Assembly: GCA_030446545.1 (NCBI GenBank)
Contig: JAUJNB010000001.1
Location: forward strand, 280,885-344,884
Length of the DNA: 64,000 nt
Direction: 5' to 3'
Origin: Acidimicrobiales bacterium
GTDB taxonomy: Bacteria > Actinomycetota > Acidimicrobiia > Acidimicrobiales > CADCSY01
The notes below the pieces were generated by a model that was not told the DNA's origin, made no database searches, and saw nothing but the letters and a program-made list of their open reading frames with translations. A program made the position numbers and the translations under genes. Each line of letters opens with the position of its first letter. Position 1 is the first letter of the stretch. This document shows, one piece after another, positions 2,189 through 41,346 of the stretch.

Positions 2189-3124
2189 TCAGCCGGACAG
2201 CAGGCTTCGCGCCATCCCGTCGAGGATGTCAGCCTCCGAGACGAGCAGCTCGTCGACCTCGAAGAAGCGCAGAACGGCGACGAGGGCGCAACACCCACCG
2301 ACGATCACGTCGGCCCGGGCCTCCTCCAGCCCGGGGTTGTGGACCCGGTCGGCCCGGGTCTCGGTGGCGAGGGTGCGGAACACGTCCTCGGCCGCCGCCC
2401 GGCTCAGTCGGAAGTGGTGGATCCGGTCGCGGTCATAGGACGCCAGACCCAGCTCGACGGCCGCCACCGTGGTGACGGTGCCGGCCAGGCCGACCATCAG
2501 CGCCGCATCCCGGGTGGAAGGAAGTTCCCGCACCACGTCGTCCAGGTAGGCCTCGGCCACGGAGATGGCCGCGCTCAGCTCTTCGGGGGCCGGTGGGTCG
2601 CGGTGGAGGTACTGCTCGGTCAGGCGCACGCAACCCACGTCGACCGAGATCACCCCCTCGGGGCCGTCCCGGCCCCTTCCCACCGCGAACTCGGTGGATC
2701 CGCCTCCGATGTCGACCACCAGGAACGGGCCAGTCTCGTCATCGAGCTCGGCGGTGGCGCCGAGGAACGACAGCCGGGCCTCCTCGGCCCCCGACAGGAG
2801 CTCGGGCGCCGCCCCGAGGGTGTCCTCCACCCGCGAGAACAGCACGTCGCGGTTGGCGGCGTCTCGGGCGGCCGAGGTGGCCGAGACCCGGACCCGCTCG
2901 ACGCCGTGGGCGTCGAGGATCCTGCGGTACTCCCCCAGGACCTCGATCGTGCGGTCCACGGCGAGGGGATCGAGCAGGCCGGAGGCGTCGACACCCGCAC
3001 CCAACCGGGTGATGAGGGCCCGTCGGTCGAGCGCCTGCAGCCGCCCGTCACCGGCATCGCGGGCCACGAGCAGGCGGGTGGAGTTGGTCCCGCAGTCGAT
3101 GACGGCGACCGCCGGACCGCTCAC
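2189..3124 (-). CDS. Ppx/GppA family phosphatase (exopolyphosphatase-like)
   Basis: 311-aa ORF. Shows AVIDCGTNSTRLLVA and VVDIGGGSTEF (ASKHA phosphate-binding motifs). Lies in the actinobacterial DUF501-ppx context. Confidence 0.85.
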   Translation of the reverse strand: MSGPAVAVIDCGTNSTRLLVARDAGDGRLQALDRRALITRLGAGVDASGLLDPLAVDRTIEVLGEYRRILDAHGVERVRVSATSAARDAANRDVLFSRVEDTLGAAPELLSGAEEARLSFLGATAELDDETGPFLVVDIGGGSTEFAVGRGRDGPEGVISVDVGCVRLTEQYLHRDPPAPEELSAAISVAEAYLDDVVRELPSTRDAALMVGLAGTVTTVAAVELGLASYDRDRIHHFRLSRAAAEDVFRTLATETRADRVHNPGLEEARADVIVGGCCALVAVLRFFEVDELLVSEADILDGMARSLLSG

Positions 3125-3612
3125 GTCGGGCCCGGCTCGCCAGCGAGCACCGTGGCCACCCAGCGGCCGACGGGATCGTCACCCCCGGCCAGGTACCAGG
3201 CGTAGTGGGCGTGCAGGCACTTCACCCCCCGCCGGGTCCCCCCGACCCCCCCACCGGGGCGGGGACCGTCGTGGCCGGCGGGCAAGGCCGCCTCTCGTTC
3301 GGCGGCGTAGCGACGGTGGGCCTGGCGCAACAGCTCGGGATCGACCGCCTGCTCGGCGGTCCGCACACCCCCCGACGACTCCAGGCGGCTGACCGCCAGC
3401 CGCTCCTCCGACCCGACGAGCCAGAAGCGCGTGGGCATGGGGGTGCCGTCATCGAGGAACGGGGCGTTGCGGATGACGACGGGTCGGCCGTCGGCCGAAC
3501 GCACCACCACCTCGAACGAGCCCCGAGGGTGGCGACCGAGCAGACCGGTGACGGCCTCGTGGTCGGGGTCGCCGTGATCACCACCGTGGTGATCGTCACC
3601 CGTCAACGGCAA
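3121..3612 (-). CDS. DUF501 domain protein
   Basis: 163-aa ORF with a 4-nt overlap onto the downstream ppx-like gene. Shows PTRFWLVG..VGGTRRGVKCLHAHYAWYLAGG, characteristic of DUF501. Confidence 0.75.
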   Translation of the reverse strand: MPLTGDDHHGGDHGDPDHEAVTGLLGRHPRGSFEVVVRSADGRPVVIRNAPFLDDGTPMPTRFWLVGSEERLAVSRLESSGGVRTAEQAVDPELLRQAHRRYAAEREAALPAGHDGPRPGGGVGGTRRGVKCLHAHYAWYLAGGDDPVGRWVATVLAGEPGPT

Positions 3613-10172: not shown

Positions 10173-11183
10173 GTGCGACTGGCGGTCTGCGGCGGTGTCT
10201 ACTCCAACCCCTATGCCCTGCGCGCGTTCCTCGACGACGCCCGCCGCCGGGGCTGTGACCGGCTTTTCTGCCTGGGTGACCTGGGCGGGTTCGGCGCCGA
10301 GCCCGATGCGGTGTGGCCGCTCCTGGTCGACAACGGGGTTGAATGCATCGCCGGCAACTACGACGTGGCCATCGGCAGGGGCGACGACGACTGCGGCTGC
10401 GGTTACCGCGACCCTCGCGACAACGAGTTCGCCCAGCTCATCTACGACTTCACCAAAGCCCACACCAGCGCCGACTACGCCGCTTGGATGCGCACCCTCG
10501 ACATCGAGCACCGCGAGACGATGGCCGGGCTCGACGTGCACTTCGTCCACGGGTCCCCGCTGGTGCTCAACGACTTCTTCTGGGAATCGCTCGACGATGC
10601 CGAGGTCGAGCTGCGGGTCAAGGAGAGTGGGGCCGACGTGTTGTGTTGCACCCACACCGGGCTGCCCTGGATCAAGCGGGTGGGTGAGCGGCTGGTGGTC
10701 AACGTGGGGGCGCTGGGACGGCCCGCCAACGACGGCCGCCGGGAGGTCTGGTACGCGGTTCTCGACATCGACGACGGCCGGGCCGAGGCCGAGCTCGTGC
10801 CCCTCGCCTACGACTGGCAGGCCCATGCCGCCTCCATGCGGGCGGCCGGGCTGCCCGAGCCGTTCGTGGAGACGGTCGAGACCGGCTGGTGGACCACCTG
10901 CCTGGAGGTCGTCCCGCCCCGGGAGCGGTCACGGGGGCGCTACCAGCTCTACCGCAGTGCCGTGCCCAGCGGGTTCGCGGCCGACGGCGTGGGTTGGGCC
11001 GACGCCCCCGAGGTGGTCGACGACGGCCTGCCCGTGGTGCCGCTGTTCGGCTCCCCCTGTTCCCACCCCGGCTGTGGGTGTACACCAACTTCCACTGCAA
11101 CCTGCGCTGCGTCTACTGCTCGGTGGCGTCCTCGCCCACGGCCCGGCGCCGCTCGATGCCTCTCCCCCGCTTCCGGGACCTGA
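10173..11183 (+). CDS. metallophosphoesterase (YfcE/diadenosine-tetraphosphatase-like); true 3' end uncertain
   Basis: Shows MRLAVCGGVYSN..CLGDLGGFG..GNYD..FVHGSP..CCTHTG (phosphoesterase metal-ligand motifs). The recognisable domain ends near TGWWTTCLEVVPPRERSRGRY (about 10950). The ORF tail then runs into the radical SAM start region. Confidence 0.75.
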   Translation: MRLAVCGGVYSNPYALRAFLDDARRRGCDRLFCLGDLGGFGAEPDAVWPLLVDNGVECIAGNYDVAIGRGDDDCGCGYRDPRDNEFAQLIYDFTKAHTSADYAAWMRTLDIEHRETMAGLDVHFVHGSPLVLNDFFWESLDDAEVELRVKESGADVLCCTHTGLPWIKRVGERLVVNVGALGRPANDGRREVWYAVLDIDDGRAEAELVPLAYDWQAHAASMRAAGLPEPFVETVETGWWTTCLEVVPPRERSRGRYQLYRSAVPSGFAADGVGWADAPEVVDDGLPVVPLFGSPCSHPGCGCTPTSTATCAASTARWRPRPRPGAARCLSPASGT

Positions 11184-11848
11184 TCGACGAGGCGGTGGTG
11201 GAGGGCTTCACCGAGGTGTACATGACCGGCGGCGAGCCCTTCCTCGAGCCCGACATCGTCGAGATGATCCTCTACGCCAGCGACCGCCTCGACACCGTGG
11301 TGCTCACCAACGCCATGTTGTTCAAGGGTCGCCAGCTCACCGAGCTGCGCCGCCTGGCCGGGCGCGCACCGCCTCGTGCTGCAGACCTCGATCGACGGCG
11401 CCCGGGCCGAGACCCACGACCGCAACCGGGGCCCGGGCTCGTGGGCCAAGGCCATGGAGGGCCTGGCTGTCGGTTGTGAGCTGGGCCTGCCCATGCGGGT
11501 GGGCCTGACCGAGACACCCGAGAACACCCACGAGGTGCCCGAGCTGGGCGCCCTGCTGGCCACCATGGGCATCGTCGGCCGGGATTTCGCCGTGCGCCCC
11601 TGATCAAGCGGGGCTTCTCCGAGACCGGCATGGACGTCGACGAGACCAACACCGTGCCTGAGCTCTCGGTAAGCGTCGACGGTGTGCACTGGCACCCGGC
11701 CGGCGCCGACATCGAGACCAGCCCCGACATGTTGCTGGCCGCCGGCGAGGTTCCCCTGGCCGAGGCCAAGCGCCTGGCCGTGGAGCGCTTCCTCACCCTG
11801 CGCCAGGGCGACGGCACCCTGCCCCACATCTACAACTGCGCGGTCTGA
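11078..11848 (+). pseudogene. radical SAM protein, reading frame broken twice (compensating +1/-1)
   Basis: The CxxxCxxC cluster YTNFHCNLRCVYC and GGEPFLEPD lie in the frame of ORF 10889..11479. The expected continuation LQTSIDGARAETHDRNRGPGSW is in the frame of ORF 11376..11603. The C-terminus (RPLIKRGFSETG)MDVDET..LPHIYNCAV is back in the first frame (ORF 11630..11848). The start is uncertain: GTG 11078 or an upstream fusion. Confidence 0.65.
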
Positions 11849-11927
11849 CCGGCCGGGGAAAAGTGCCTTCCCGGGGGTAGTACCGTCTCGAGACGAACCC
11901 GCGGATCGCAACACAGAGGTGCAGCTG

Positions 11928-12539
11928 ATGTCGCTCTCGCAGAACCGCTGGCTCACGCTGGGGACGTCCCTGGTCGTCGTCGCCCTCCTGGGTGTCGCCT
12001 GCGACAACGGTGAGGACGGTGAGGCGTTAGGAGCGGGTTCCGACGCCGATGGAACCACCACCACGGTTCCAGAGACCGCCACGACACTTCCGGTGACGAC
12101 CACCACGGCTGCGCCGACCCCGGAGGAGGAGGTGCTCGCCGCCTACCAGGGCTATTGGGATGCCGTCGACGACGCGTTCGGGCCTCCGGAGGTGGATCCC
12201 GAGTCACCCGGGCTTCGCCGGTTCGCTACGGGAGAGGTCCTGCCGGGCATCATCGACAGTGCCGAGGAGGTCAAGGCCGAGAACGCCTACGTCCGGACGC
12301 CCGAGGACAGTACGCATGAGTCGGAGGTCGTATCCCTCGAGGAGTCCACCGCCACCGTTCGGGACTGCACCGTCGACGACGCCGTACTCGAGCGGGTGGG
12401 TACCGGGGAGATCCTCGACGACGCCGTGAGCACCCGCGAGTACATTGCCATGCTGGTCCTGGAAGACGGCCAGTGGAAGGTTGCGGTCCTCACCGAGGCC
12501 AACACCTGGGAGGGCGTGGCCGGATGCGCCATCGAATAG
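11928..12539 (+). CDS. putative lipoprotein, unknown function (paralog A1)
   Basis: Internal ATG of ORF 11682..12539. Reads MSLSQNRWLTLGTSLVVVALLGVAC (lipobox-like), then a T-rich linker TTTVPETATTLPVTTTTAAPTPEEEVLAAY. Paralog at 21608..22231. Confidence 0.7.
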   Translation: MSLSQNRWLTLGTSLVVVALLGVACDNGEDGEALGAGSDADGTTTTVPETATTLPVTTTTAAPTPEEEVLAAYQGYWDAVDDAFGPPEVDPESPGLRRFATGEVLPGIIDSAEEVKAENAYVRTPEDSTHESEVVSLEESTATVRDCTVDDAVLERVGTGEILDDAVSTREYIAMLVLEDGQWKVAVLTEANTWEGVAGCAIE

Positions 12540-13417
12540 GCGTGGTGGCCTTCGCCGTCGCCATGGCGGGTACCTTCATCGCCGTCACCCCCTCGGCAAC
12601 GGCCCTCGGTAGGGACAACAAGAAGGCGCCGGACGTCGACGCCGGCGTCGACGGTTCAGCCCCGTCCGGGACGCCGGTGATCAGAGTCAGGGATCCCGGA
12701 GGTCCCGGCCGCCCGGGCAACTCCGGCGGCTCCGGGAGCTCCGGCGGCCCGGGCATCGACAGCGGGTCGGGCTACGACTGCACCTGGTACCGCCTGGACG
12801 GGGCCGACCAGCCCGACTTCGCCCAGCCCTACGACCCCCCGCCGCCCGACGGCACCCGAGCCTGGCTGCGCTGTTCGGGGCCCGAGAGCATCGACGGGAT
12901 CCGCACCCGCCAGAGCGGAGGGACGGTGGCGGCCATCGCCGTCGAGCGCCTGCCCCTCCCCGGACCCGAGGTAGGAGCCAACCCGAGGGTCGACGCCGAC
13001 CAGTTGGTGGGCGTGCCCACCTGGTTGTGGGTCACCAACTTCGAGGCGTTGTCGGTCACCGCCGCGGTGCCGGGCACCACCGCCGACCTGGTGGCCACCC
13101 CGGTGTCGGTGAGCTTCGACATGGGCGACGGCCGGTCGCCCCTGGTGATGGGGGTGGGGCCCCAGTTTGCCTGCCAGGCGCCCGGCACCCCCTACGACGT
13201 CTCCCTGCCCTCGGCTGCCCAGCGCAGCGCCTGCACCTACACCTACGAACGCTCCTCGGCCGGTCGCCCCTCCCAGGAGTTCACGGTCACCGCCACCATG
13301 TCCTACGACCTGGACTGGGCGGCCGACACGGGCCAGTTCGGGAGGCTGCCCACCCTCACCCGCACGTCCACCTTCCCCCTCCGGGTGGCCGAGGCCCAGG
13401 CCCTGGTGACGGGCTGA
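12524..13417 (+). CDS. secreted protein, unknown function (paralog B1)
   Basis: Internal ATG of ORF 12473..13417. Signal-like MRHRIGVVAFAVAMAGTFIAVTPSATA and a Gly/Ser-rich linker precede a conserved domain DCTWYRLDG..VGVPTWLWV..RVAEAQALVTG. Paralog at 22210..23082. Confidence 0.65.
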   Translation: MRHRIGVVAFAVAMAGTFIAVTPSATALGRDNKKAPDVDAGVDGSAPSGTPVIRVRDPGGPGRPGNSGGSGSSGGPGIDSGSGYDCTWYRLDGADQPDFAQPYDPPPPDGTRAWLRCSGPESIDGIRTRQSGGTVAAIAVERLPLPGPEVGANPRVDADQLVGVPTWLWVTNFEALSVTAAVPGTTADLVATPVSVSFDMGDGRSPLVMGVGPQFACQAPGTPYDVSLPSAAQRSACTYTYERSSAGRPSQEFTVTATMSYDLDWAADTGQFGRLPTLTRTSTFPLRVAEAQALVTG

Positions 13418-13469
13418 GCACCGACGCTTCTCCGTCGGGCCGAGTTGGACGACGGAGGACACCAGGGTC

Positions 13470-13565
13470 TCAGCCGAACGTTGGCGGCCGGGGTTCCAGG
13501 CGACGCTTGACGGTGAGGTAGGCGCTGCCGCCGCTCATGCCCAAGCCTGCCTCGAGGGCCGCCCG
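13470..13565 (-). pseudogene. decayed 3' fragment of a lipoprotein paralog
   Basis: Minus-strand reading ..ALEAGLGMSGGSAYLTVKRRLEPRPPTFG* parallels the C-terminus of the adjacent lipoprotein (..ARALTDGRAYLSVNVFWDLDRPRVG*). No start codon and no upstream body. Confidence 0.4.
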
Positions 13566-13620
13566 GCTTGGACATGCCAAGGGCTGGTCCCCGAAGATGG
13601 CGAAGTGGCTCGCGGAGGAC

Positions 13621-14187
13621 TCAGCCGACCCTGGGCCGGTCGAGATCCCAGAAGACGTTGACGCTGAGGTAGGCGCGACCGTCCGTCAGTGCCCTCGCCT
13701 GGATGGCGATGTTCGGCCCGTCGGTCCCGAGGCGCTGGGATGGGGTGTGCTCGAGGGACCCGGTGTTGTCTCTCCGGACGGCGTTGCGAGCGGCCCACTC
13801 CTCCAGTCGGGTGCCGTCGAGGCCCCAGCGCTTCACTAGGTCGGCGGCCCGCTGGGCGGCCTGGGCTACCGGCTCCCGGTCGAAGTTGACCACGATCGTT
13901 TGGAGTACCTGGCCGGAGGTATCCCCTGGCGGTCGGCCGGCGACGGCATCGAAGGGGCCTTCGATGGTCACACCCTCGGGGAGCAGGATGGTGAGCTCTC
14001 CCGGTTCGGGATCAACGAAGTAGCTGTCGCTGTCGATGTCCTCGGGCCAGTCCACGTCCTCGATGCGATGGCTGGTGCGTAGGTCCCACACTGCGGGCAC
14101 GGCGTTCTCCCCGTCTCCGAAGCCGATCTGACAGCCGGCCAGCAAGGTGCCGGCGGCCAGGGCGAGTGATGCCAGTCGATGTCTCAT
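13621..14187 (-). CDS. lipoprotein, candidate immunity protein for the upstream toxin
   Basis: 188-aa ORF. MRHRLASLALAAGTLLAGC is a canonical lipobox (LAGC). Its ATG overlaps the reconstructed toxin stop (ATGA). Confidence 0.7.
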   Translation of the reverse strand: MRHRLASLALAAGTLLAGCQIGFGDGENAVPAVWDLRTSHRIEDVDWPEDIDSDSYFVDPEPGELTILLPEGVTIEGPFDAVAGRPPGDTSGQVLQTIVVNFDREPVAQAAQRAADLVKRWGLDGTRLEEWAARNAVRRDNTGSLEHTPSQRLGTDGPNIAIQARALTDGRAYLSVNVFWDLDRPRVG

Positions 14188-15915
14188 CCACCCGGCTCGT
14201 ACTGGAGGAGCCAGTTCGGAATGTTGCGGCGCTCGGCGGCCAGGTCCTCGAGGGGGTGGCGATGTAGCCGCCGGCCTGTCCGGCGTTCACCAGGCACATG
14301 TAGCGGGGGAACATGTCCCCGATGATCCACTGCCAGCGGTGGTCGCGCATCGTCACGTTGTTGATGGGCAGTTCGGCCACGGTGCCCCCGATGCGGTCGG
14401 GAGTGTCGAGATAGACCGGGTCCCCGGGCATCCAGCCGGGCAGAAGGGGCATCCGGTCGGGGGTGTCCAGCACCGGCGTACGCACCTCGTAGGGCACCTC
14501 TTCGCGGAACGAGTCACCATTGGGGATGGGGCTGTCGGCCACGAAGGACATGCCCATGGTGAGGGCCCACGCCAGCGGGCTGTGGTTGCGGATCTCGTCG
14601 TAGTCGTCGCCGATGATCGTGTACTGCTCGTGGCGCACGATGCCCAGAGTGCCCCGCCGAATGAGGGCCGGATCTCCCGAGTCGATGTCGCGCCAGGCCG
14701 AGATGTGGGCGTCCAATATCTCCCCCGCCGGTACAGCCCCTCCATGGCGGCCAGGCCGCCCTGTCGGTAGGCCACGTGCTGCCAGGCCAGGTCGTCGAAG
14801 ATGTTCTGTTGCATCTCCAAGAGCCGGGTCTCGACGAACCGCAGCTCCTCGGCCACCGTGGTGAGGTCCTGGCTCGTCAGCTCGCCGATGTCGTCGAAGG
14901 GCAGGCCCAGGCGACGAAGCGCCTCGGTCACCTCCTCGGCGTTGAGCGCGCCCGCTTGGATGGCCCGGCGCAACACGTGGAGGTCCTGGAGGCCGGCGTA
15001 GACGCTGGCCCCGGCCAGCTTGGCCATGCCCGCCCACAAGAAGCGCTCGGGGTCACTGGCGTAGAGCCGGGCGTAGTACTCCCAGCCCGCTCGGACCTGG
15101 GCATCGATGGCGGCCAGGCCGAGGGCGGGGTCCCAGGCCTCGGCGTGGATGCCGGCCTGGTGCAGGGCCTCGAACTGCCACGACTCCTTGGAGTCGAGGA
15201 TGAGGCCGGCGTCGGTGACCAGGAAGCTGAGCTCCTGGCCGCCGGGGGCCCACAGGCCTTCGACCATCCCTCCGGCGATGCGGCCCAGCCAGGCCCCGAT
15301 GCCCGAGATCCACGGGTCGGCCAGGTCGTCGCTGCGGGCCACAGCCAGATCGCCGGCGGCGGCGCGGCCGGCCCGGTCGCGCCGGTCCACGGCATCCTCC
15401 AGCAGGCGCCGGGCCTCCTCGGCCTCGGCCTCGGCGTCGGCCAGGGCCGAGGCCCAGTCGGGTCCCGACCACGGTGCCGGCTCCCGGGGGGCCCGGTCGG
15501 GGTTGGCCTCGTTCCAGCGGGTGGCGTCCTCGGCCTCGTCGCGGTCGTGGCGGGCCCGAGCGGCCAGGCCCTGGTTGGCGTCGTCGATGTGGCCGCTGGC
15601 GTGTCGGGCTCGGCGCAGGGCCGCGGCGGCATCGTCCTGGGCGTGGTCCAGCTCGCCGGCGTAGGCCACCAGCGCCGAGGCGCTGCGGTAGCAGCGGGCG
15701 GCGGCCGACTCCAGCGCCGGGGGGACCTGGTCGCGGTGCTCGGCGAAGCGCTCGGCGGCCAGGCCCAGCCACAGGGGGCCGGGGTCGATGCGCTTGACCA
15801 CTCCGGCCTGGTCACCGAGTTCGTCGCCGAGACGCTCCAGGCGCCGGGCCGAGGCCCGCACGGCATCGGGGTCGCCCGGCACCGGGTCCGATTCGGCCAG
15901 CGGCTCCCAGCCCAT
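14184..15915 (-). CDS. putative T7SS-secreted polymorphic toxin (T7SS-signal-type N-terminal domain), two apparent 1-nt frameshifts
   Basis: The N-terminus matches the pattern of the actinobacterial 'putative T7SS secretion signal' domain: MGWEPLAESDPVPGDPDAVRASARRLERLGDEL..PLWLGLAAERF. The body is in ORF 14353..15915 and continues in ORF 14012..15037 after the C-run at 14722-14726 (..GLYRRG / EILDAHISAWRD..). A second shift at the G-run 14252-14256 gives ..YIATPLEDLAAERRNIPNWLLQYEPGG* ending at 14184. The C-terminal domain of about 330 aa was not recognised. Confidence 0.65.
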
Positions 15916-15921
15916 GGGGCG

Positions 15922-16206
15922 TCAGTACCCCACGGCCACGGTCACGATGGTGGCGTCGGCGTCGGTGAAGGCCCGGGTGGCGGCCTCGGTGTAGGCGGCC
16001 AGGGTGGCCAGAGCCGACGACAGGCGCTGGCGCCGTTGGTCCCAGTCACCGGCCACGTCGGCCAGCGCGTCGGTGACCTCGGGCGAGCCGGAGACGTCGA
16101 TGGCCAGCCCGGTCACCTCCTCGAGGTCGGCGACCGCCGTGCGGGCGTGGGAGAGGGCGTGGGCCAGGTCCTCCAGCTCCTCCAGGTCGGCCAGGATGCG
16201 CGTCAC
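15922..16206 (-). CDS. small helical protein, probable secretion partner of the downstream toxin
   Basis: 94-aa ORF that is acidic and helical (MTRILADLEELEDLAHALSHARTAVADLEE..). Its stop lies 6 nt before the toxin ATG. About 180 nt of non-coding sequence lies upstream. Confidence 0.55.
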   Translation of the reverse strand: MTRILADLEELEDLAHALSHARTAVADLEEVTGLAIDVSGSPEVTDALADVAGDWDQRRQRLSSALATLAAYTEAATRAFTDADATIVTVAVGY

Positions 16207-16384
16207 GGGGGGCCGGACCGGTCGGACACGATCGGTGGCCGGCTCCTCGGGGTCATGCGGTTCCCCTTGCGTCGATGCGTGGCGTCAGTTGGCTGCGGTG
16301 GAGTGCCGGGCTCACGTTAGGACTCCTCACGAGGAGCGTCCAGGGCTCGGTGCTCGGGGTGGTCCACCCCGGGATGGTCCCACC

Positions 16385-16816
16385 TCACGTCTCACCCTGG
16401 TCCACGCCCCGCACGCTGCGGGCCGAGCCCTGGCCCGTGACCGTGACCTGGGCCAACCCCCCGATGCCGAGGATCTGGAGGGGCTGTTCGACGGTGACGG
16501 TGACGGTGACGGCGTCACCGGTGACGACCACCGTTCCGGGCCGGCCCAGCAGGGCCAGGTGGGCAGTGGCCGCAGCTTGCGCCTGGGCCGCATCGAGCTC
16601 CTGGTCACCCGAAGACCGGAGACGGTCGATGGACACGGCCTGGGCGCCGGCTCGGGCCGCCGACTCGGCTTCGTTGTCGGCCTGGCGCTTGGCCGCCAGC
16701 AGGGTGCCCCCGTCGAGGACGAGGCCCACGACGAAGATGAGGGCGACGGTGAAGATGGTGACGAAGGCCGTCACCTGCCCAGCTTCGCCACGACGCCCGG
16801 TCCAGGGGCCCCTCAC
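16385..16816 (-). CDS. TadE/TadG-like pilus assembly (pseudopilin-like) protein
   Basis: GTG at 16816 overlaps the upstream stop (GTGA). Reads VRGPWTGRRGEAGQVTAFVTIFTVALIFVVGLVLDGG, a TadE/G N-terminal hydrophobic segment. Confidence 0.7.
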   Translation of the reverse strand: MRGPWTGRRGEAGQVTAFVTIFTVALIFVVGLVLDGGTLLAAKRQADNEAESAARAGAQAVSIDRLRSSGDQELDAAQAQAAATAHLALLGRPGTVVVTGDAVTVTVTVEQPLQILGIGGLAQVTVTGQGSARSVRGVDQGET

Positions 16817-17241
16817 GAGTCGAGCCCCCGGAACTGGTCCACCACTTCCACCGCTCCGGCGGAGAGGGTCTGGCTGCCCGGAAGCGGGAGGGGGGACAGG
16901 TCGCTCAGGTCGACGTCGCAGCTGACCTCCACCGACACGGTCCCGCCCCGTCGGAAGGCGTCGATGTCGGTGGTGACGATCACCGAGGCGCAACTGAACC
17001 CCTGGTCGGCCAACGTCGCCTGGGCCGCCGCCTGGGCCGCCGGGCCGGCGGCCACGGCGCTGCGTTGGATGGAGGCGGCCCGAGCGGCGTCACGGGCGGC
17101 CCCGACCAGGTCCCCCCGGGCCCCGGCCAGGCGACCGGCCAGGGTGGCGAAGACCAGCAACAGCAACAGCAACGGGGTCACCAGCACCAGCTCGGTGGCT
17201 GCGGCCCCCCGCTCAGCGCGCACCCGGGAGATGGGGGTCAC
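16813..17241 (-). CDS. TadE-like protein
   Basis: GTG at 17241 overlaps the upstream stop (GTGA). Reads VTPISRVRAERGAAATELVLVTPLLLLLLVFATLAG, the TadE motif (ERG..xxE + hydrophobic helix). Confidence 0.75.
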   Translation of the reverse strand: MTPISRVRAERGAAATELVLVTPLLLLLLVFATLAGRLAGARGDLVGAARDAARAASIQRSAVAAGPAAQAAAQATLADQGFSCASVIVTTDIDAFRRGGTVSVEVSCDVDLSDLSPLPLPGSQTLSAGAVEVVDQFRGLDS

Positions 17242-17636
17242 GGCGCCCGGAACTCCTCCACCGGGCCCTCGGACTCGGCCGAGATCGGCAGCCGGATGCC
17301 CGGGACGACCTGGATGGCCCGGCCATTGACCTCCACCCGGGCCACCCCAGCCGGGTCGCGGGTGGCCGTGACCGTGCGCTCGAGCACCAGGGCCTGGCCC
17401 ACGGCGTCGAGGAACGCCTCGGCCCGGGCCTTTCCCGCAGGGGCGCTCGACCCCTCGACCCGTGCCGCCCGAGCCCCTTCCTGGGCGGCCGCCGACGCCA
17501 CGTGCGAGGCGTGGAACCACAGGCCGAACTGCACCACCAGGAGCACCATGAACAGCATGACCGGCGTGACCAACACCAGCTCCGCCGTGGCCGCGCCCCG
17601 CTCGCCCTTGCCCCGTCCTCCGGTCACCCTCGGCAC
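17238..17636 (-). CDS. TadE-like protein
   Basis: 132-aa ORF reading GERGAATAELVLVTPVMLFMVLLVVQFGLWFHA. Confidence 0.8.
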   Translation of the reverse strand: MPRVTGGRGKGERGAATAELVLVTPVMLFMVLLVVQFGLWFHASHVASAAAQEGARAARVEGSSAPAGKARAEAFLDAVGQALVLERTVTATRDPAGVARVEVNGRAIQVVPGIRLPISAESEGPVEEFRAP

Positions 17637-29174: not shown

Positions 29175-29707
29175 GCCTGTGCCTTGATCGCGCTGGGAGG
29201 TACGCCGTAAAACATCACGAGGGCGACGGCCACGTCGACGGCATCCGCCGTCTCGGTGATCAGATGGCTCCCGAGGACGCCCTTGAGACTCGCCACCGGC
29301 GTGCCGTTCTGCCACTCCAACAGCTCACGTGGAGCGATCCCCGTGATCCGGTAGAGGTACGACCGGTTCTCCAAGGTGACCACAACCCCTCGGTGGCGGC
29401 GGCTGAACAGTGCCCATTCGGGCCGCACCACTTCTCCGGAGAGAGATCCCACGTGCAGCGGCACCGGTTTCATGTAGGCCGCGACCGGCTGGCCGTCCAG
29501 CCGTCCCCAATGGCCGACGTCGAGCTGGGTAGAGGGCACGTTGGGCCCCCATACCCGGGTGGCGGTCTGGTCGTCGCTGTACCCGACGTAGGCCGGCCCG
29601 TACGGCCCTTGGTACCCAGCGCGCACCTCCACGCCGTCGGGCGAGCGGGGGGTGTCGTCGGAAACACTTCCCAGGCTGAAGGCCACCATGGGTGCCTTGG
29701 GGGTCAC
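29171..29707 (-). CDS. multicopy ~170-aa family protein, copy 7
   Basis: GTG at 29707 overlaps the upstream stop (GTGA). VTPKAPMVAFSL..GYQGPYGPAYVG..RVWGPNVP..GRLDGQPVAAYMK..FSRRHRGVVV..RSYLYR..VDVAVALVMFYGVPPSAIKAQA. Confidence 0.7.
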   Translation of the reverse strand: MTPKAPMVAFSLGSVSDDTPRSPDGVEVRAGYQGPYGPAYVGYSDDQTATRVWGPNVPSTQLDVGHWGRLDGQPVAAYMKPVPLHVGSLSGEVVRPEWALFSRRHRGVVVTLENRSYLYRITGIAPRELLEWQNGTPVASLKGVLGSHLITETADAVDVAVALVMFYGVPPSAIKAQA

Positions 29708-30983
29708 CGGGACACCTGCGCCACGCCCGGCAGCAGGGCGCTCAGGCGTCGCCACACCTCTCCCGAGGACACCGGCCCGAGGGTCACACCCAGAGCGGGG
29801 TCGTCGAAGGCGGCGTCGTCGGGCACCGAAGAGATCCAGTAGCCGGCCTCGACGGCGTCGACCACGGTGAGCGAGCGGCTCCGCCGGGACCCCTCTCGCC
29901 AGAGAGAGGTGGCTCGCCACGTCAGGCGCCGGCTGCCCACCATGGTTGCTACTGCCGTGGCCCCTTGTCGATCGAGCCGGCCTTTGCCCATCAGGGATGC
30001 CACCGCCCGGGAGCCGGCACCGGCGTCGACGTTGGCCATGGTGGCGTCGAGGAGGTGACGCTCGACGGTGACGGGATGGTCGAGCGCCGGGGCGGGGCGC
30101 CGGCGGTGCAAGGCCAACTTGAACCTCAGCCTGACATGGCCGAGAGCCAGGTCCCGGTCACCGGGGTGGGGCGTGTCGAGGAGCTGTCGGGCCAGACGGT
30201 CGATCTCTCCCGCGCTCACTCGTTGGGGCCCGACTACCGCCCCGGAAACGCCGTCGCCCTCCAGCAGCCACAGCCCGTCATCGGTCCCGAAGGCCCGCAC
30301 CGTGCGCTCCGGCGAGTCCGAGCGCCAGACCGGAGCGCGCTGCAGCGTGGTGGTGGCGGCGGCGGCGGTGAGCTGCTGGAGGTCGGGCACGGCCCCGGCC
30401 GACCCATTGGGCGCGACCGGCGACCCGTCGCCGGCCCGGCCGTCGGGATCCAGGGCACCAAAGACGTAGATCGCCTCCCGGTCCAGCGAGCGGAAAACCA
30501 ATATGTGCTGGCCGGACTGGGTGTCGACGTCGTCGTGCAGGGCGATCCCGTCGCCGAGGACCAGGGTCGCCCCGGCCCACCCCGCTCGCTCCCCGGATCC
30601 GTGGCGCCAGGTGAGCTGGCCGACCGCATGTTGGAAGGCATGGACAACGGCGTCGAGCAGGGGGTCGCACTCGACCTCGTCAGGGGCGTCCTCGGGGTAG
30701 GAGATCACCTCGTGGGCGACGTCGAGTCGCTCGACGGTCCGGGTCGACAACGACCGGAGCGACGGGGTCAGCGGCCAGAGGTAAGGGGTCCAGTGGGGGT
30801 CGGGCTCCTCGGGGAGACCCGCAAGCCCGCGGCACAGGACCAGTTCCTCGTCGAGGACCTCGCCCACCACCACATCGGAGCTGGCCGCCAGGCCCCCAGC
30901 CGGCCCCACTCCACCACCCCGGAGCGGTCGGCCAGGGCGGACAGGTCGACAGGACTGGTGAGGTAGGGGCCGTCAGCGGTCAT
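29704..30983 (-). CDS. two-part protein: unknown N-terminal domain + EspG-like C-terminal half; one apparent frameshift near 30895-30915
   Basis: ATG at 30983 (MTADGPYLTSPVDLSALADRSGVVEW) lies in the frame of ORF 30768..31076. The body is in ORF 29704..30909 (..GGLAASSDVVVGEVLDEELVLCRG..). The N-half is paralogous to 32905..33782. The C-half (LALHRRRPAP..SRRLTWRATSLWREG..TVVDAVEAGYWISS..VSSGEVWRRLSALLP) is paralogous to 23926..24714. Confidence 0.5.
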
Positions 30984-31521
30984 CGCCGGCCCAGCTGGTG
31001 GCGGCGCTGGGCGTTGGCCCGGGCTGCCTCCAACGCCTCCACCATCTCCTCGGCCCGAGGGCCGGGCAGCAACCACAGCGACGGCTCACGGCCGGGTTGG
31101 CGGTCTTCGACGAGCACTCCCTTGCCCCACCCCAACGCGCCACCGTAGAGGTTCTGCCTGACCCTCAACCGACCGTTCTCCCAATGCGGGAACCAACTGG
31201 TGAGCTGGCCACATGGCCGCTCAGCGACCTGACGTCACCCAGGCGGTGGACGGGGACCACCAGGCGACCGCGCACGTGCAGCCCCTTGTCGTCCACCTCG
31301 ACCGACCCCCAGCTCTGGGGGATGAACAGCAGCCCGGAGAAGACCACCAGGGCCAGGTACGTGCCGGCGATCCACCACCAGGCGTTGGGAGCTGTGGGTC
31401 CGGATGGGGTCAACGCATCAGTGGTCAGACAACCCACGGGGATGGCGACCATGAGGACGATCCATCCCCGAAGGAGGCGAGGGCCGTTCTTGAAGTGTGG
31501 AGTGGGAGCGGAGGGTTCCAC
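30980..31521 (-). CDS. two-TM DUF3093/PH-like membrane protein (paralog of 27900..28406), one apparent frameshift near 31215
   Basis: ORF 31165..31521 reads MEPSAPTP..GWIVLMVAIPVGCL..WWWIAGTYLALVVFSGLLFI..VEVDDKGLHVRGRLVVPV. The alternative frame reads ..QLTSWFPHWENGRLRVRQNLYGGALGWGKGVLVEDRQPGREPSLWLLPGPRAEEMVEAL (ORF 30980..31168). That parallels GGWFGDRASDVRVAGGQWGAAVGDRYVIVKERGQPGY of the paralog. Its stop overlaps the next ATG (ATGA). Confidence 0.55.
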
Positions 31522-31532
31522 TGTTGGTACGG

Positions 31533-32515
31533 CTAGAAGATGCTTCCGAGGACCCTACCGGCGCCCTTGACCACCGAGGACGCTCCGTCGACCACTGCGT
31601 CGGCACCGCTGTCCATCCACTGGCCGATCTTCTCCCGGTGCTCGTAGGCGGTCGCACCCACTACGAGTACCGCTCCGGCGCCGGCGACGACCGGGTTGGG
31701 GGTCATCAACATGACGCTCCCGGCGGCCGTCAGCCCTTTGGTGATGGCCTTCTCGGTATCCCCCTTCTTGTATGCGTCGTAGGAGTCATAGGCGGAGAGT
31801 GCGGCCCCGGCCGCACCGAGCCCTCGCCCGGCAACCGTCACTACGCGACCGGCGCCGGGGACTTCAAGAAGTCCTGCACACGGCGCCCGGGACCGGTCAG
31901 CCCTCGGTTGGCCCGTAGGGCGTAGCGACTCTCGTTGGATCGGCGCAGGAGAGCTCGGCGGACAGCCTTGAGCTCCCGGTACTTCACCTTCTTGACGACT
32001 TGTATCTCCCGGCGCGCCATGGTGGCGCCGCCGGGCGTCATAGCCCGGATGCTCGCCGTCGAAGGCATGGGGCGACTGCCGAACTGGCGGGCGATGTTCC
32101 AGGTCTGCGCCCCCGCAGTGACGGCCCGGGTGCCGGAGACGCTGGTTCGCACCAGCCGCAAGATGGCTTCGGAACCGCTCGTGGCCGCGTCGGCCATGCG
32201 GATGCCGGCGGCGACCGACGACACGATCGAGCCGAAGTTACCCACGCCCTCTCGGTCGGCCTCCTCGGCGGCGGCACCCAACAGCCCCACGTTCTCGCCC
32301 AGGGTGACGATGAGGTCGGCGGCGCTGTCGATGGCCTCTCCGTGGGCCGGCAGGGGCGGGACGAACTCCGAGGAGGTGGAGCGGAAGCGGTTGAGCGCAT
32401 CCTCGACGTCTTCGCCGGTGGCCCGCAGGTCGTCGGCCAAGATCTCGAGGTCGGCCGCCATCTCGTACATGGCCTCGGGCACGAAGACGACGTCGTTGCT
32501 CACCGGGGCCCCCAA
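31533..32515 (-). CDS. putative secreted effector (paralog c), split into 31841..32515 and 31533..31841 by a frame break
   Basis: The N-part reads ..VSNDVVFVPEAMYEMAADLEILADDLR... The C-part reads VTVAGRGLGAAGAALS..MTPNPVVAGAGAVLVVGATAYEHREKIGQWMDSGADAVVDG. That aligns with RGLGVAGGAVS..VAPSPVTAAATIVTGVAWVGLEAWNHREEIAEVWNDGVDAVGD of 24731..25684. Combined length is 326 aa against 317 aa for the paralog. Confidence 0.6.
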
Positions 32516-32849
32516 CGCCCTCGAGCTCGAGGCGACGCCGCTCCTGTTCCTCCTCCAGCTGCTCCTGGCGCTCCCGGCGCCGCTCCTCGTCCTCCGCCAG
32601 CGCGTCGGCCAGGGCCTGGCGGATGGCGTCGGCGGTCTCCTCGAGGTTGCCGGCCTCGGTGCGCAGGATCTGGGCCAGGTCGTCGGCGTTGGCGTCGAAG
32701 CCCAGGCGAGACGCTCCCGACCACGCCCCCAGCTGGCCGGCGGAGGCCTGCACCAGCCGCTGGGCGGCGGCGTCGAGGTCCGACGCTGCCGTCATGCAGG
32801 CCTCGATGGCCTGACGGGCGGTGGCCTCATCGAAGTCGACGAGCTCCAT
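32500..32849 (-). CDS. small WXG-like helical protein; 3' end ambiguous
   Basis: ATG at 32849 inside ORF 32238..33059. Reads MELVDFDEATARQAIEACMTAASDLDAAAQRLVQASAGQLGAWSGASRLGFD (W-x-G), followed by a charged coiled-coil tail. As assembled the frame runs on over the next gene. A 1-nt shift in the GGGGG/CCCC run gives a TGA at 32500-32502 overlapping a GTG (GTGA). Confidence 0.5.
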
Positions 32850-32904: not shown

Positions 32905-33782
32905 TCAACCCCGGCGCCAACGCCGCTTCCATCGAGGGGTGTCGTCGCCGAGGGACAGGAGCTGGCGGGCGGCGGCCAGGATCTCCTGGTCGCCCAGTCG
33001 CTGCAGGACGGCGCCAGGCTCGGCGCCCCGCCGGCCCTGGAACAGCCACAGCCCGTCATCGGCGCCGTAGGCGGTGACGGCCTGCTCCTTCCCGCCGCCG
33101 GCGGTGATCCCGGCGGCGGCCATCACCGTGGTGGAGCGGGCCCGGCGGGCCAACTCCGCCACCCGGGGGCGACCTCCTCGACGGTGGCCGCCACCTCGGG
33201 GGCGACGGTGGTGGTGGAGCGGCCGGTGGGGTCGAGCATGGCCGCCAGCCACGCCGCCTGGCGCTCCTGGGTGCGCAGGACCATCTCGTGCAGTCCCGAC
33301 TCGGCGGAGATGTCGTCGTGTAGGGCTAGGCCGTGGGGAACCACGAACGCTCCCCCGATCGCCGTACCCTCGTCGACCACGTCGGTGCGCCAGGTCACCA
33401 GGGCCGAGGCCTGCTGGACCGCCCACACCAAGGTGGCATGGGGTTGTTCGAACACCGGGCCGCCGTCGTCGCCGAAGCTCAACTGCCCCCGGGACAACAG
33501 CAGGCGGACACAGGCCTGCTTGGCGATGTCGGCCTCCTCGGCGGCCAGTGCGCTCAGGTGCGCCGTCCAGTGGGGGTCGCCCGTCGAGTCGGGGTCGTCG
33601 CCGCACAGGACCACCTCCTCGTCGGTGAAGGTGCCCACCACGATGTCGTGGGCGCGGGCCACCTCGGCCAGGCGTCCCTTGGCCAGGTCGGTGCTGGTCA
33701 GGGACAGGTCCAGGGGAGCGGGGCGGTGGAGGTCGGGGTTGGTCGCCACCACCGGATGGTAGTGAAGGCCCCCACCAGCCAT
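32905..33782 (-). CDS. unknown-domain protein (paralog of the N-half of 29704..30983), one apparent frameshift near 33165-33185
   Basis: ORF 33123..33821 reads ..DLSLTSTDLAKGRLAEVARAHDIVVGTFTDEEVVLCGDDPDSTGDPHW..GLALHDDISAESGLHEMVLR. It continues in the frame of ORF 32905..34185: ..AVTAYGADDGLWLFQGRRGAEPGAVLQRLGDQEILAAARQLLSLG. The start may be 33782 or 33821. Confidence 0.5.
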
Positions 33783-33845
33783 GCCGGCCAACCAGGGTCT
33801 TGCCCGCACCAGAGAGTCCACCGGCTCGGCGTGGAGAACGGCCGC

Positions 33846-36800
33846 TCAAACGGCCGGCGGCCCCGGCACCTCGGGGGCAGGGCGACCTGGACCAGGGCTG
33901 CCTCTCCCCGGCCACGAGAAAGCCCCGTCCCGGCACAAGGGCGACGGGGACTCGACGGGGCAGGCGTTGGCCCAGGAGCTCGCCGTCGGCGGACAGGTTG
34001 GGTTGGAGCAGGATGCCCGTGCGCGACTGGCGCAGGCCCTGGTCCAGTGCCCGTAGGCCGCCCGTAGATCGTCGCTGCGCCCGGCGGCCACCACGTGCAG
34101 GCCCGGCCGGCGTGACTGCAGGAGCGTCCCCAGCAGGCCGTCGACGTCGTCCACCTGGGGGGCGTCGTCGACGAAGACGAACCACCGACGACCGTCACCC
34201 GGGGCCACCCGGATGACCTGGGCCAACTGCGACAGGGTCCCGGCGGCGTCGAGCGCCTCCAGGGGATGCAGCGACGAGCGATCGTCACAGACCCCCACCA
34301 GCACGGTGGCCGGGTCGGCCCGGCGCACCAGGCTGGCCATCAGGGCCAGCGTGGAGGTCTTGCCACTGCGGGGCGGCCCGGCCACCAGCACGTGGTCACC
34401 GGCGTGCAGGGTCAGCACCGCCGGGCCGAGGTCGTCGTCGGCGATCCCGACCGTGAGCTCCACCGGCGCAGGCTCCAGCTTGGCCCCGCCCGGCAGCTCG
34501 TGGAAGGCCAAGGAAGGCGGGAGCCCCCGGATGACGGCCGGAGGCGGGCGCCGCCCGGCACCCGTTCCCCGCAGGAGGGGCGACAGGTCACCGGGATGGC
34601 CCACCTGCATCACCAGCTTGGTGGGCCCGTGGACGGCCCGGCCGGGGACGAAGGCCGGCAGTCGCTTCGGTCGCAGCCCGATGGCGGAGAAGTCGGCCGG
34701 GTCCGCCAGTCGGAAGAGGATCTTCTGGCTGACCAGGGCGGCCATGCGCGCCGGGAGCGATCCGGGACGCTCGCCGGCGACCACGAACAGGATGTCCACC
34801 TCGGGCCCGTCGGCGAACACCCGCCGGAAGGCCTCGGCCGTCTCGGTGCTTTCGATTCCCTCATGTTCGGCCACAAAGGCGCCGATGCCGTCGATGAGCA
34901 CGACGACGCGGGCCTCCCCCGCCCGGTCGCTCGGGCTCAGGGCGCGCCGACGGTCGAGCTCGCGACGCAGGTAGCGAACCAGCCGGAGCTGACCCTCGTG
35001 ATCTCCGGCGGGCACGACCGCCCCGACGTCGTCATGGGCCACCAGGGGGGCCAGGCCTCCCGCCCCGAAGTCGACGGCGTAGACGTGCCAGGGCCGGTCC
35101 TCGCACCGATGGAGCAGCGAGCGGGCCACCGCCAGCAGGGCCGTGGTCGTGCCGCCGCCCACCATCCCGAAAAGGGCCAGGTGCCCGTCGGCCGGGTTCC
35201 ACCCCACCACTGCCTGACGCTGGTGCTCCGGGTCGTCGGCCAGAGCGAAAGGCACGGTCCCGACGTCGGCCTCGAGCAAGAGGATGTCGTCCAACTCGAT
35301 TCGGTCGCTCAGCATCTCGAGCCACGGCCGCCGAGGTGGTGGCGCCTGGCCCCGTTCGAAGGCGGACACCACGGCGTCGACCAGGCGGGCCAGGTCGCTG
35401 GGCCCGTTACCGGGCTCGGGCCCGGTCGCGGGCGACGAGGGAAGGGAGCCGAAGCCAAAGGGGCTCAGGCGCAGGGCGGTCGTCCGCCGGGCCTGGCGGG
35501 TGGCGGTGGCCAAGGCCGTCTGTACCAACTCGACATCGGTCGGGCCCGACCGGACGTAGGCCCTGCCGGGGTTCGACCGGGCAATGGCGGCCGCATCCTT
35601 GCGGTCGATGATGTCGGAGGAGTCGCCGGCGTCCTGGACACGAAGGGCGATGCGCAGGTTGGTGTTGGCCTTGATGTTGCCGTTCACCGCTCCCGACGGC
35701 CGCTGGGTGGCGAGCACCAGGTGCACTCCGAGGCTGCGGCCCCGCTGCGCCACCCCGACCAGGGCGCCCAGGAACTCGGGAAGTTCGCTGGCCAGGGTGG
35801 CGAACTCGTCGACCACCACCACCAACCGGGGCAACGGACCCGAGGGCGAGCCGCTGCGCAGGTAGCTGGCCTGGTCCTGGGCGGCCGACACCCGCAGCAC
35901 GCGTTCTCGATGGGCCAGCTCGGCCTCCAGCGAGGTGAGGGCCCGCTCCCCGAGGTGTTCGTCGAGGTCGGTGACCAGCCCGACGACGTGGGGCAGACGG
36001 GCGCACTGGTCGAAGGCGCTGCCCCCCTTGTAGTCGACGAGGACGAACACCAGGTGGTCGGGGTCCACCCGGGCCGCCAGGCCGGCGACCAGAGAGCGCA
36101 GCAGCTCGCTCTTCCCCGACCCGGTGGTGCCGCCCACCAGGGCATGGGGCCCGTCGCGCACCAGGTCGATGTCGACCATCCCGCGCTCGCCCATGCCGAT
36201 GGGCGTGCGCAGGGGCGGGTCGGGCAGGCCCCGGGACCACGCCCGGGCCACGACGTCGGGGTCGACGTCGTCCATCTCGAGCAGGGGCAGCAGCCGCACC
36301 AGCTTGGGCAGGCCGCTCCCGAGCACCTCCAGCTCGGAGTCCTCGTAGCGGGCCAGGGCCCGGGCGGTGGCCCGAGCGGTGGCGTCGTCGACCCCTCCGA
36401 TCAGAAAGGCGTCGATGCGCACCCGGTCCCGGGGCCGACGGAGGTCGGCATCGCCCAGGGGCCGGAGGTCGACCACCACGGTGCACATGGCCGGCAACTG
36501 GTCCTCGCTCGGGGCCAACACCACCCCCGCCACCGGCCCGGCCGCACCGTTGAGCACCAGGCGGGCCGGGGCCCGCCGACCCTCGACGAGCGCCACGTCG
36601 TCGACCACCACCAGTCGGGTGCGGCCTCCGCTGGTGTCGGCCGGACGCGACCGCAGGCGCGAGCCCGGTCCGCCCTCGTCCCCGGAGGAGGCCAGCAGCT
36701 CGCTCAGCAGCGCCTCGCAGGCCGGGCGGTCACCCGCCAGCAACCGGGACGACCCGTCCACATGGCGGGTGTGGGGCAGCCACTTGGCCCAGTCCCAGTC

Positions 36801-38090: not shown

Positions 38091-38102
38091 CAGGAGCGGG
38101 GG

Positions 38103-40623: not shown

Positions 40624-41339
40624 CGGTCGGGCACCAGGACCAGGCTGACCCGGCCCTCGGCCGATGCCCCGGCGATGTCGGGCGCCCCTTCCCGGGGCAC
40701 GGCGAGGGACACCACCGCGGTGGACCCGTCGACCAGCTCGTCGCTGGCGAACACCCGGGCCTCGGCCAACACCCGCCCGAGGGAGCCCGGTGCCACGCTG
40801 CCGGCCGGGCGACCCGCTCCCCCGTCGAGATCGGCGGGGGCCGACGACGAGGCGTTGAGCACCACCAGCACCTGGTCGCCGGGCTGGAGCCGGCCCGAGG
40901 GCAACTGCTCGCGCGGCACGGGCACGCCCACCACCACGTCGCCCTCGGCCAGGAGCGACGCGTCCCCCCACTGACCCTGGGTCAGCAGCGCGCCCGGTAC
41001 CAGATCGACGGCGGCCGACTGGCCGATGACCGCAGCCCGCCGGTCGGCACCGACCGGCCGCAGGCCGGGGTCGGCGGAGACCCGCACCACCGCGAGGTCG
41101 GCAGCCTCGATGAGCTGACCCTCCGGCACCGGCCGGGCCACCGCCAGCACGGGCTCGCGCCCGCCGGCGTTCACCCACAACAGAGCGAAGGCCAGAGCCG
41201 AGCCGATGGTGACGAGGATCGACACCAGGGCGAGCGACCAGCGTCGCTGACGGGTCGGGCCCGAAGGCACCCGAGGGGGTCGGTCGGGGCCACGGGGCGC
41301 CGGGGCGGCCCGACGAGTCGGTGCGCTGGTGCTCGCCAT
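40620..41339 (-). CDS. SAF-domain / CpaB-like Flp pilus assembly protein
   Basis: ATG at 41339 (MASTSAPTRR..). Has one TM segment (WSLALVSILVTIGSALAFALLWV), then PVLAVARPVPEGQLIEAADLAVVRV (SAF-like). Confidence 0.65.
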   Translation of the reverse strand: MASTSAPTRRAAPAPRGPDRPPRVPSGPTRQRRWSLALVSILVTIGSALAFALLWVNAGGREPVLAVARPVPEGQLIEAADLAVVRVSADPGLRPVGADRRAAVIGQSAAVDLVPGALLTQGQWGDASLLAEGDVVVGVPVPREQLPSGRLQPGDQVLVVLNASSSAPADLDGGAGRPAGSVAPGSLGRVLAEARVFASDELVDGSTAVVSLAVPREGAPDIAGASAEGRVSLVLVPDR

Positions 41340-41346
41340 GTCGCTC

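Follow-up and report, generated by a model that had tools for sequence, protein, structure and literature searches.

The 64,000-nucleotide stretch of DNA analysed here (the window) belongs to contig JAUJNB010000001.1 of an Acidimicrobiales bacterium, and between positions 13,470 and 16,206 it carries what is very probably a polymorphic toxin-immunity cassette of a type VII secretion system (T7SS) from an Acidimicrobiia-like actinobacterium. The cassette consists of three closely packed minus-strand genes, seen in the list of open reading frames (ORFs) and by direct reading: these encode a helical protein of 94 amino acids (aa), a large putative toxin and a 188-aa lipoprotein, the putative immunity protein. 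An earlier note on this DNA had read the region as a three-gene T7SS toxin operon with lipoprotein immunity; all of the elements it described were found at, or a few bases from, the coordinates it gave, and its interpretation is supported, the checks that could have spoken against it having come out in its favour where they were made. Across the locus and its relatives we find varied N-terminal modules, a co-occurring downstream partner gene, orphan cassettes, and conserved flanks round a divergent cassette, the features by which polymorphic toxins are recognised.

The gene for the small helical partner (15922-16206, minus strand) starts with GTG and ends 6 nt before the ATG of the toxin gene (14184-15915, minus strand), which encodes 577 aa once one base is added at each of two homopolymer runs. 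The peptides quoted in the earlier note all occur within this stitched protein, in which an N-terminal T7SS_signal domain (aa 12-195; 15331-15882, minus strand) is followed by a C-terminal DUF2515-like domain (approximately aa 230-577; 14187-15228, minus strand). With the two bases added, the toxin stop codon overlaps the ATG of the lipoprotein gene (13621-14187, minus strand) in an ATGA at 14184-14187 on the same strand, the coupling that had been proposed and that can be read directly from the sequence. The 4-nt overlap between toxin and lipoprotein genes is also present in the homologous loci L001, L002, L004, L006 and L026; the order of small gene, toxin and lipoprotein recurs in L001, L004, L006 and L026, and L002 has the toxin-lipoprotein pair only. 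A scan of positions 13300-16500 found no promoter or terminator, a result that is uninformative at 72% GC.

That the toxin begins with a T7SS secretion signal is borne out by its match to the Pfam model T7SS_signal (PF21725), which at 50.7 bits is well above the gathering score of 27 (E 3e-13) and aligns aa 12-195 with profile positions 69-235 of 241. The domain contains a WxG motif (W49-L-G51; nt 15763-15771, minus strand), of which W49 and G51 are each at least 90% conserved in the homologue alignment A1; the LXG family is absent among the Pfam matches to E 1. In L001, L004, L006 and L026 the gene just before that of the toxin encodes a homologue of the small protein, 88-96 aa in length and 33-52% identical, which shares with the 94-aa protein the C-terminal motif DADATIVT. 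Five members of this small-protein family were compared with WXG100-type models, where none passed the cut-offs, and no other family was found for them. By analogy with known T7SS partner proteins, the 94-aa protein is probably the secretion partner of the toxin.

The C-terminal part of the toxin had been described as unassignable. A family can be assigned to it, however: it matches Pfam DUF2515 (PF10720) at 32.2 bits against a gathering score of 24.3 (E 9e-8), the match covering only profile positions 12-123 of 294. A match to a housekeeping enzyme had been named as one outcome that would speak against a toxin; the domain matches only DUF2515 and behaves as a polymorphic-toxin tip, and an NCBIfam search of the toxin gave no match. 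Searching 1.84 billion representative proteins with a profile built from 13 C-terminal domains recovered 1072 representatives at E <=1e-3, of which 724 at E <1e-10. Among the best 147 of the 1072, the domain ends no more than 40 residues from the C-terminus in 133, and the N-terminal extension that precedes it has a median length of 146 aa. A match to DUF2515 was found in 77 of 96 distant relatives, whose N-termini include WXG100 (11), T7SS_signal (6) and the core of the extracellular contractile injection system (eCIS; 2), as well as WXG100_2 and EspA/EspE; Rhs-core-like ends were judged by eye to be present in the homologues P0089 and P0127. When a single genome was scanned for each species, the domain turned up in Actinomycetota, Halomonas, Planctomycetota, Bacteroidota, Chloroflexota and Acidobacteriota. 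The varied trafficking modules, the C-terminal position and the distribution over several phyla therefore argue for a polymorphic-toxin tip. In the Amycolatopsis loci L015-L021 the DUF2515-like domain has 25-36% identity and is followed by genes for LuxR/AfsR-like regulators; this subgroup may have a role different from that of the toxin branch.

Over the 147 sequences the residues Y281, D375, G387, E430 and Q431 are invariant and Q369, H380, R527, W528 and D534 nearly so, with many conserved Trp and Tyr residues besides. An AlphaFold2 model of the domain is mostly alpha-helical (predicted local distance difference test, pLDDT, 92.8; predicted template modelling score, pTM, 0.88). Our guess from the conserved residues is that the domain may be a hydrolase using the carboxylates of D375 and E430. 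Several other readings were tried and set aside: the pattern 'E...MQ...AY..GG', taken by eye as lytic-transglycosylase-like, has the wrong motif spacing and no match to a lysozyme-like fold; 'FDD' and 'DDYDE', taken as signs of a terpene synthase or prenyl-diphosphate enzyme, came with only a chance-level Foldseek match (E 2.3, TM-score 0.11); and membership of the Lipocone/TelC group found no detectable sequence or structural similarity. DUF2515, PF10720 and PF21725 are not mentioned in the literature searched, in which 'YppC' matched only unrelated papers.

The third gene ties the toxin domain to a conserved lipoprotein family. The protein begins MRHRLASLALAAGTLLAGC, and its N-terminus, MRHR-LASLALAAGTLL-AGC, fits the lipobox pattern [LVI][ASTVI][GAS]C; the predicted lipobox, LLAGC, spans aa 15-19 (14131-14145, minus strand) and is followed by the conserved motif VWDLRTSHRIEDVDWP. 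In 11 other loci (L001, L002, L004-L008, L011, L012, L013 and L023) the gene that comes directly after the toxin domain, usually overlapping it by 4 nt, encodes a homologue of 165-210 aa; these homologues have a lipobox (a transmembrane anchor in one) and, behind it, the motif VWDL-x-SH...DV-x-WP. In alignment A8 the lipobox Cys is conserved to at least 90%; the Planctomycetota member L023 has no Cys there and is anchored by a transmembrane segment. The loci with a downstream lipoprotein come from Actinomycetota (L013 is from Streptomyces sp. SPB162), Acidobacteriota (L012, Pyrinomonas) and Planctomycetota (L023, Phycisphaerales), so that the coupled lipoprotein partner of the earlier note is a family tied to the toxin domain across three phyla, with a recurring 4-nt overlap.

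All 24 database homologues of the lipoprotein are named 'hypothetical'. Pfam has no family for the window protein and gave isolated weak matches in single members of A8, the best of them to SIMPL (E 9e-4, in one sequence); a sequence search of the PDB with the family found no relative. The mature part of the AlphaFold2 model has pLDDT >90, and a Foldseek search with this model returned nothing significant (best E 0.03, TM-score 0.27). Immunity proteins that are lipoproteins or have a transmembrane anchor mark toxins active outside the cytoplasm, for which TelC/TipC provides a template (PMC12419801). We consider it probable that the toxin has an extracytoplasmic target, because a lipid- or membrane-anchored partner on the outer face is conserved in both monoderms and diderms. 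The downstream family with a lipobox or transmembrane anchor in three phyla backs the earlier argument from a lipoprotein partner to an extracytoplasmic target.

Relics of further cassettes lie both next to the operon and at a distance from it. The degenerate copy of the lipoprotein C-terminus that had been seen just downstream is real, and it reaches beyond position 13565, where it had been thought to end, to about 13600. It is what decay has left of the 3' end of a second, orphan immunity gene (13470-13600, minus strand) and was recognised from collinear DNA matches, one of 18/19 nt (GCGCCTACCTCA[G/C]CGTCAA) and one of 9/9 nt (TCGGCTGAG), whose spacing of 48 nt equals that in the intact 3' end (BLAST E 2e-5 in a small search space); with one frame shift it reads ...GDQPLACPSRAALE..GGSAYLTV/SVAW (here and below a slash marks a change of frame), the C-terminal motif of the family. 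Both tblastn and blastn confirmed the orphan toxin C-terminus that the note had placed at 23132-23330. The decayed fragment (23130-23400, minus strand) corresponds to approximately aa 494-575 of the toxin together with the first nine or so codons of the lipoprotein: aa 494-575 match 23400-23146 of the window (tblastn E 4e-10), and 14171-14378 match 23130-23326 with 85.6% DNA identity over 208 nt (blastn E 2e-59). Several indels and frame breaks and an in-frame stop interrupt this orphan tail. It abuts a duplicate of the convergent flank of the cassette, in which two plus-strand genes (11791-13418) encode a lipoprotein-like protein of 285 aa and a secreted protein of 314 aa without a match in Pfam or NCBIfam; the duplicate of about 1.65 kb, at 21465-23083, is 79% identical over 1662 nt (blastn). 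Since the orphan tail adjoins the flank duplicate, it is taken as part of a segmental duplication of roughly 1.9 kb that lost most of the toxin gene and the lipoprotein gene.

The locus of a close relative, L026, has a flanking gene pair that is 82-86% identical in protein sequence to that of the window, whereas the toxin is only 58% and the immunity protein 55% identical. In L026 the immunity gene is separated from the flank by an orphan toxin tail, a chimera of 75 aa, and by a further immunity gene without a signal peptide; this second gene, being at the equivalent position, explains the immunity relic at 13470-13600. The N-terminal part of the 75-aa ORF (2905-3132; MLRQNLYGDALGWGEGVLVADRQPGRDPSLW) closely resembles a small ORF of the window (30980-31234, minus strand) that lies upstream of an EspG-like paralogue, and its last 20 or so residues are toxin tail; from these resemblances it looks like a recombination chimera. 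In L027 (1-3759) a partial toxin, an immunity gene, fragments covering aa 122-231 and aa 456-576, an immunity gene, a short fragment and an immunity gene follow one another in an array that offers a natural series for the study of immunity specificity. The arrangements in L026 and L027 are textbook cassette turnover of polymorphic-toxin loci, and the relics in the window are explained by cassette turnover and segmental duplication. The duplicated flank genes may be functionally tied to the toxin locus, because the same pair flanks the L026 cassette at 82-86% identity.

As assembled, the toxin ORF is spread over three successive frames, with switches at runs of five G (14721-14725) and five C (14252-14256) on the coding (minus) strand. 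One G added at the former restores ...LYRRG/EILDAH..., one C added at the latter restores ...IATP/LEDLAAERR..., and the resulting 1734 nt encode 577 aa and a stop codon with no internal stop. The stitched toxin is colinear with intact homologues of 554-591 aa from Acidimicrobiales-type metagenome bins (39-58% identity), with no indel at either stitch, and a hidden Markov model of codon-position GC independently switches frame at both runs. Stitching, colinearity and codon-position GC thus uphold the two single-nucleotide corrections, at a C-run and a G-run, on which the earlier note relied.

Screening the whole window for changes of frame without a stop codon, and checking the candidates by eye, yielded six further single-base run-length breaks at short G/C runs in three other genes. 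Two of them fall in the last 250 nt of an EssC/EccC-type ATPase gene (33895-33915 and 34028-34048), dividing its tail ...HWT/LRQSRTGILLQP...GRGFLVAG/AALVQVALPP among three frames; a radical-SAM gene has three, near 11045, 11362 and 11598 (11035-11060, 11352-11375 and 11590-11610); and in a WXG-like gene the break near 32510 (32495-32530) joins the gene to the next reading frame. A first screen by GC at third codon positions had suggested overlapping same-strand ORFs elsewhere as frameshifts, most of which are ordinary adjacent genes. The window has 237 G/C runs of at least 5 bases; if the length of a few percent of them were miscalled, as happens in consensus sequences from long reads, all eight breaks would be accounted for. 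Because six similar homopolymer breaks hit three other genes, both toxin breaks are most likely errors of consensus or assembly, and in the organism itself the gene is probably unbroken. More generally, the other breaks suggest systematic consensus errors in this assembly, and ORFs of the window that end oddly are suspect.

Two breaks within 1.7 kb could also mean that the toxin gene is a genuine pseudogene with two real single-base deletions, its immunity lipoprotein having been kept, a frequent outcome at loci of polymorphic toxins. The other copy of the toxin tail within the window is plainly decayed, and the homologue P0010, from another metagenome-assembled genome (MAG), is frameshifted and reads into its own lipoprotein gene. 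We nevertheless regard a pseudogene as rather unlikely: the six other G/C-run breaks, in the T7SS ATPase, radical-SAM and WXG-like genes, form a typical consensus-error pattern, apart from the two run lengths there are no stops or indels in a sequence that stays colinear with intact homologues, and the codon-position GC signal is kept through all three frame segments. That toxin production is regulated at the two breaks, through programmed -1 ribosomal frameshifting or phase-variable tracts, is extremely improbable; both breaks lie within homopolymers and would call for a -1 shift, but each run has just 5 nt, the intact homologues stay in one frame through both positions, similar breaks occur in unrelated genes, and no slippery heptamer or downstream structure was seen, though no search was made for either.

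Reading the toxin gene as intact, we propose that the 94-aa protein would pair with the WxG-containing helical N-terminal domain of the toxin, in analogy to WXG100 dimers and LXG-Lap complexes, and that the EssC/EccC-type ATPase, whose gene lies 18 kb from the cassette (33849-38102, minus strand), would then, by the same analogy, recognise the complex. This ATPase of 1418 aa has FHA and FtsK_SpoIIIE domains in Pfam, with FtsK/SpoIIIE in triplicate, and its NCBIfam matches are to EssC (E 1e-144) and EccCa (E 2e-107); it is presumed to be the motor that exports the toxin. The exported domain of about 340 aa, DUF2515-like and mostly alpha-helical, would be the toxic part, acting outside the cytoplasm on a conserved component of the envelope, for which peptidoglycan, a lipid-linked precursor and a membrane lipid are candidates, probably through hydrolysis by means of the conserved carboxylates. 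In the producer, the lipoprotein, whose translation is coupled to that of the toxin, would neutralise it on the outside of the membrane, and replacement of cassettes would have left the immunity relic beside the operon and the orphan toxin tail in the duplicated flank.

Several observations weigh against this interpretation. Toxicity, neutralisation and secretion are all predicted from sequence and context. The toxin gene is broken as assembled, as is that of P0010. The 94-aa protein falls under the cut-offs of both Pfam WXG100 (E 0.14; 12.9 bits against 27.3) and TIGR03930 (E 0.005; 17 bits against 44.85), and the EssC and EccCa matches of the ATPase are both under the NCBIfam equivalog cut-offs. 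A Foldseek search of the toxin model against the PDB and BFVD returned nothing under E 1, and thus no recognisable catalytic fold, a sequence search of the PDB with the toxin domain gave chance matches only, and the idea of a hydrolase draws on conserved residues alone. The Amycolatopsis subgroup, finally, has no downstream lipoprotein, and some members of the domain family may be something other than such toxins.

One might also take the large protein as a T7SS-secreted enzyme for the producer's own envelope, active for example in wall remodelling, with the lipoprotein as its regulator or docking partner; the domain's chemistry has no assignment, DUF2515 is named, according to the family description, from stand-alone proteins of Firmicutes, and Amycolatopsis does without the lipoprotein. 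We find this quite improbable: the domain occurs in fusion with several delivery modules unrelated to one another (WXG100, T7SS_signal, eCIS core and Rhs-like ends), arrays of orphan fragments and multiple immunity genes are present in L026 and L027, and identities are 82-86% in the flanks against 55-58% in the cassette, all of them hallmarks of conflict systems and not of housekeeping enzymes. A toxin that acts in the cytoplasm of the target cell, with a lipoprotein that blocks its entry or has nothing to do with immunity, would be in keeping with the majority of characterised T7SS and Rhs toxins, which are cytoplasmic nucleases, NADases or similar, and with the lack of an envelope-related fold among the PDB and BFVD structures searched. 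It is nonetheless improbable: the downstream gene is translationally coupled to the toxin gene and co-varies with the toxin domain, its product has a lipobox or transmembrane anchor in all three phyla examined, and the known immunity proteins of this kind, whether lipoproteins or transmembrane proteins, all mark extracytoplasmic action (PMC12419801). Returning to an antibacterial toxin that acts on the envelope, we suggest tentatively, as a possibility short of a firm proposal, that the DUF2515-like domain defines an unrecognised class of envelope-targeting antibacterial enzymes, with a fold outside the PDB and delivery by T7SS, eCIS and Rhs systems in at least five phyla, which would always be countered by a single extracytoplasmic immunity family (VWDL-x-SH...DVxWP) and whose target would be common to monoderms and diderms.

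In how the cassette would work, its closest analogue is TelC-TipC of Streptococcus intermedius, in which a T7SSb LXG toxin is a lipid II phosphatase and the immunity protein is extracellular and anchored in the membrane (PMC12419801). The two systems have in common export by a T7SS (predicted here), an N-terminal helical targeting domain of WXG type, genes for small helical partners, a mostly alpha-helical C-terminal toxin, extracytoplasmic action (which for the window toxin is our inference) and an immunity protein anchored at the outer face. They differ in that neither sequence nor Foldseek comparison relates the window toxin to TelC or to any PDB entry, and in that this toxin begins with T7SS_signal rather than LXG; the host is an actinobacterium, and the fold of the immunity protein is unrelated to anything solved. 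A second analogue, TslA of Staphylococcus aureus, is a T7SS lipase toxin with reversed domain order and an alpha/beta-hydrolase domain, and its immunity lipoprotein TilA is present in multiple copies. Here, too, a T7SS toxin would act on the envelope from outside and be neutralised by lipoproteins in multiple copies, whereas the toxin domain in the window protein is C-terminal, alpha-helical and DUF2515-like.

The architecture of T7SS_signal followed by DUF2515 is identical in the actinobacterial database homologues P0001, P0004, P0009 and P0011, in which it is precomputed for unnamed hypothetical proteins. Like the loci of Rhs and contact-dependent inhibition (CDI) systems, the window locus combines a variable C-terminal tip and a linked immunity gene with displaced orphans downstream and conserved flanks; unlike them, it has a T7SS-type delivery module and not Rhs or CdiA, some members of the family having Rhs-like or eCIS modules. 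The type of cassette and its two-domain architecture are thus already known, and it is the toxin and immunity families that are uncharacterised. To our knowledge, antibacterial toxins of the T7SS are well studied in Firmicutes and hardly in environmental Actinomycetota; the locus offers a clean and testable toxin-immunity pair, with a helper protein and a T7SS motor nearby, and, in its conserved flanks, diverged pair and orphan relics, a condensed illustration of how cassettes turn over. For neither the toxin domain nor the immunity family is there a solved structure, yet both recur in several phyla, and the substrate of the domain, once known, could reveal a new form of attack on the envelope and would supply the function of a DUF that has long stood in Pfam.

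The window holds other genes of T7SS character. A WXG100-like protein matches TIGR03930 (E 2e-4), and three paralogues, all on the minus strand (23926-24714, 29707-30972 and 33126-33845), have a common C-terminal block, '...RRLTWRATSLW...SLTVVDAV.AGYW.SS.P...DPAL.VTL.PVSSGEVWRRLSALLPG'; only the first of them gives a near-threshold match to Pfam EspG (E 5e-6, slightly under the cut-off). These three EspG-like proteins may be substrate-specific T7SS chaperones. Just upstream of the first lies a gene (24731-25684, minus strand) for a protein of 317 aa, helical at the N-terminus and hydrophobic and rich in glycine at the C-terminus (GLGVAGGAVSTGVGIA...FFVAPSPVTAAATIVTGVAWVG), which has no family match and could be a membrane-acting T7SS substrate. 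Genes of the Tad/Flp-pilus type flank the region (16385-20406 and 38103-41400) and encode TadE-like proteins, TadB/C-like membrane proteins, a CpaF-type ATPase and a CpaE-like protein; in L001, RcpC and T2SSE genes lie within 10 kb of the cassette.

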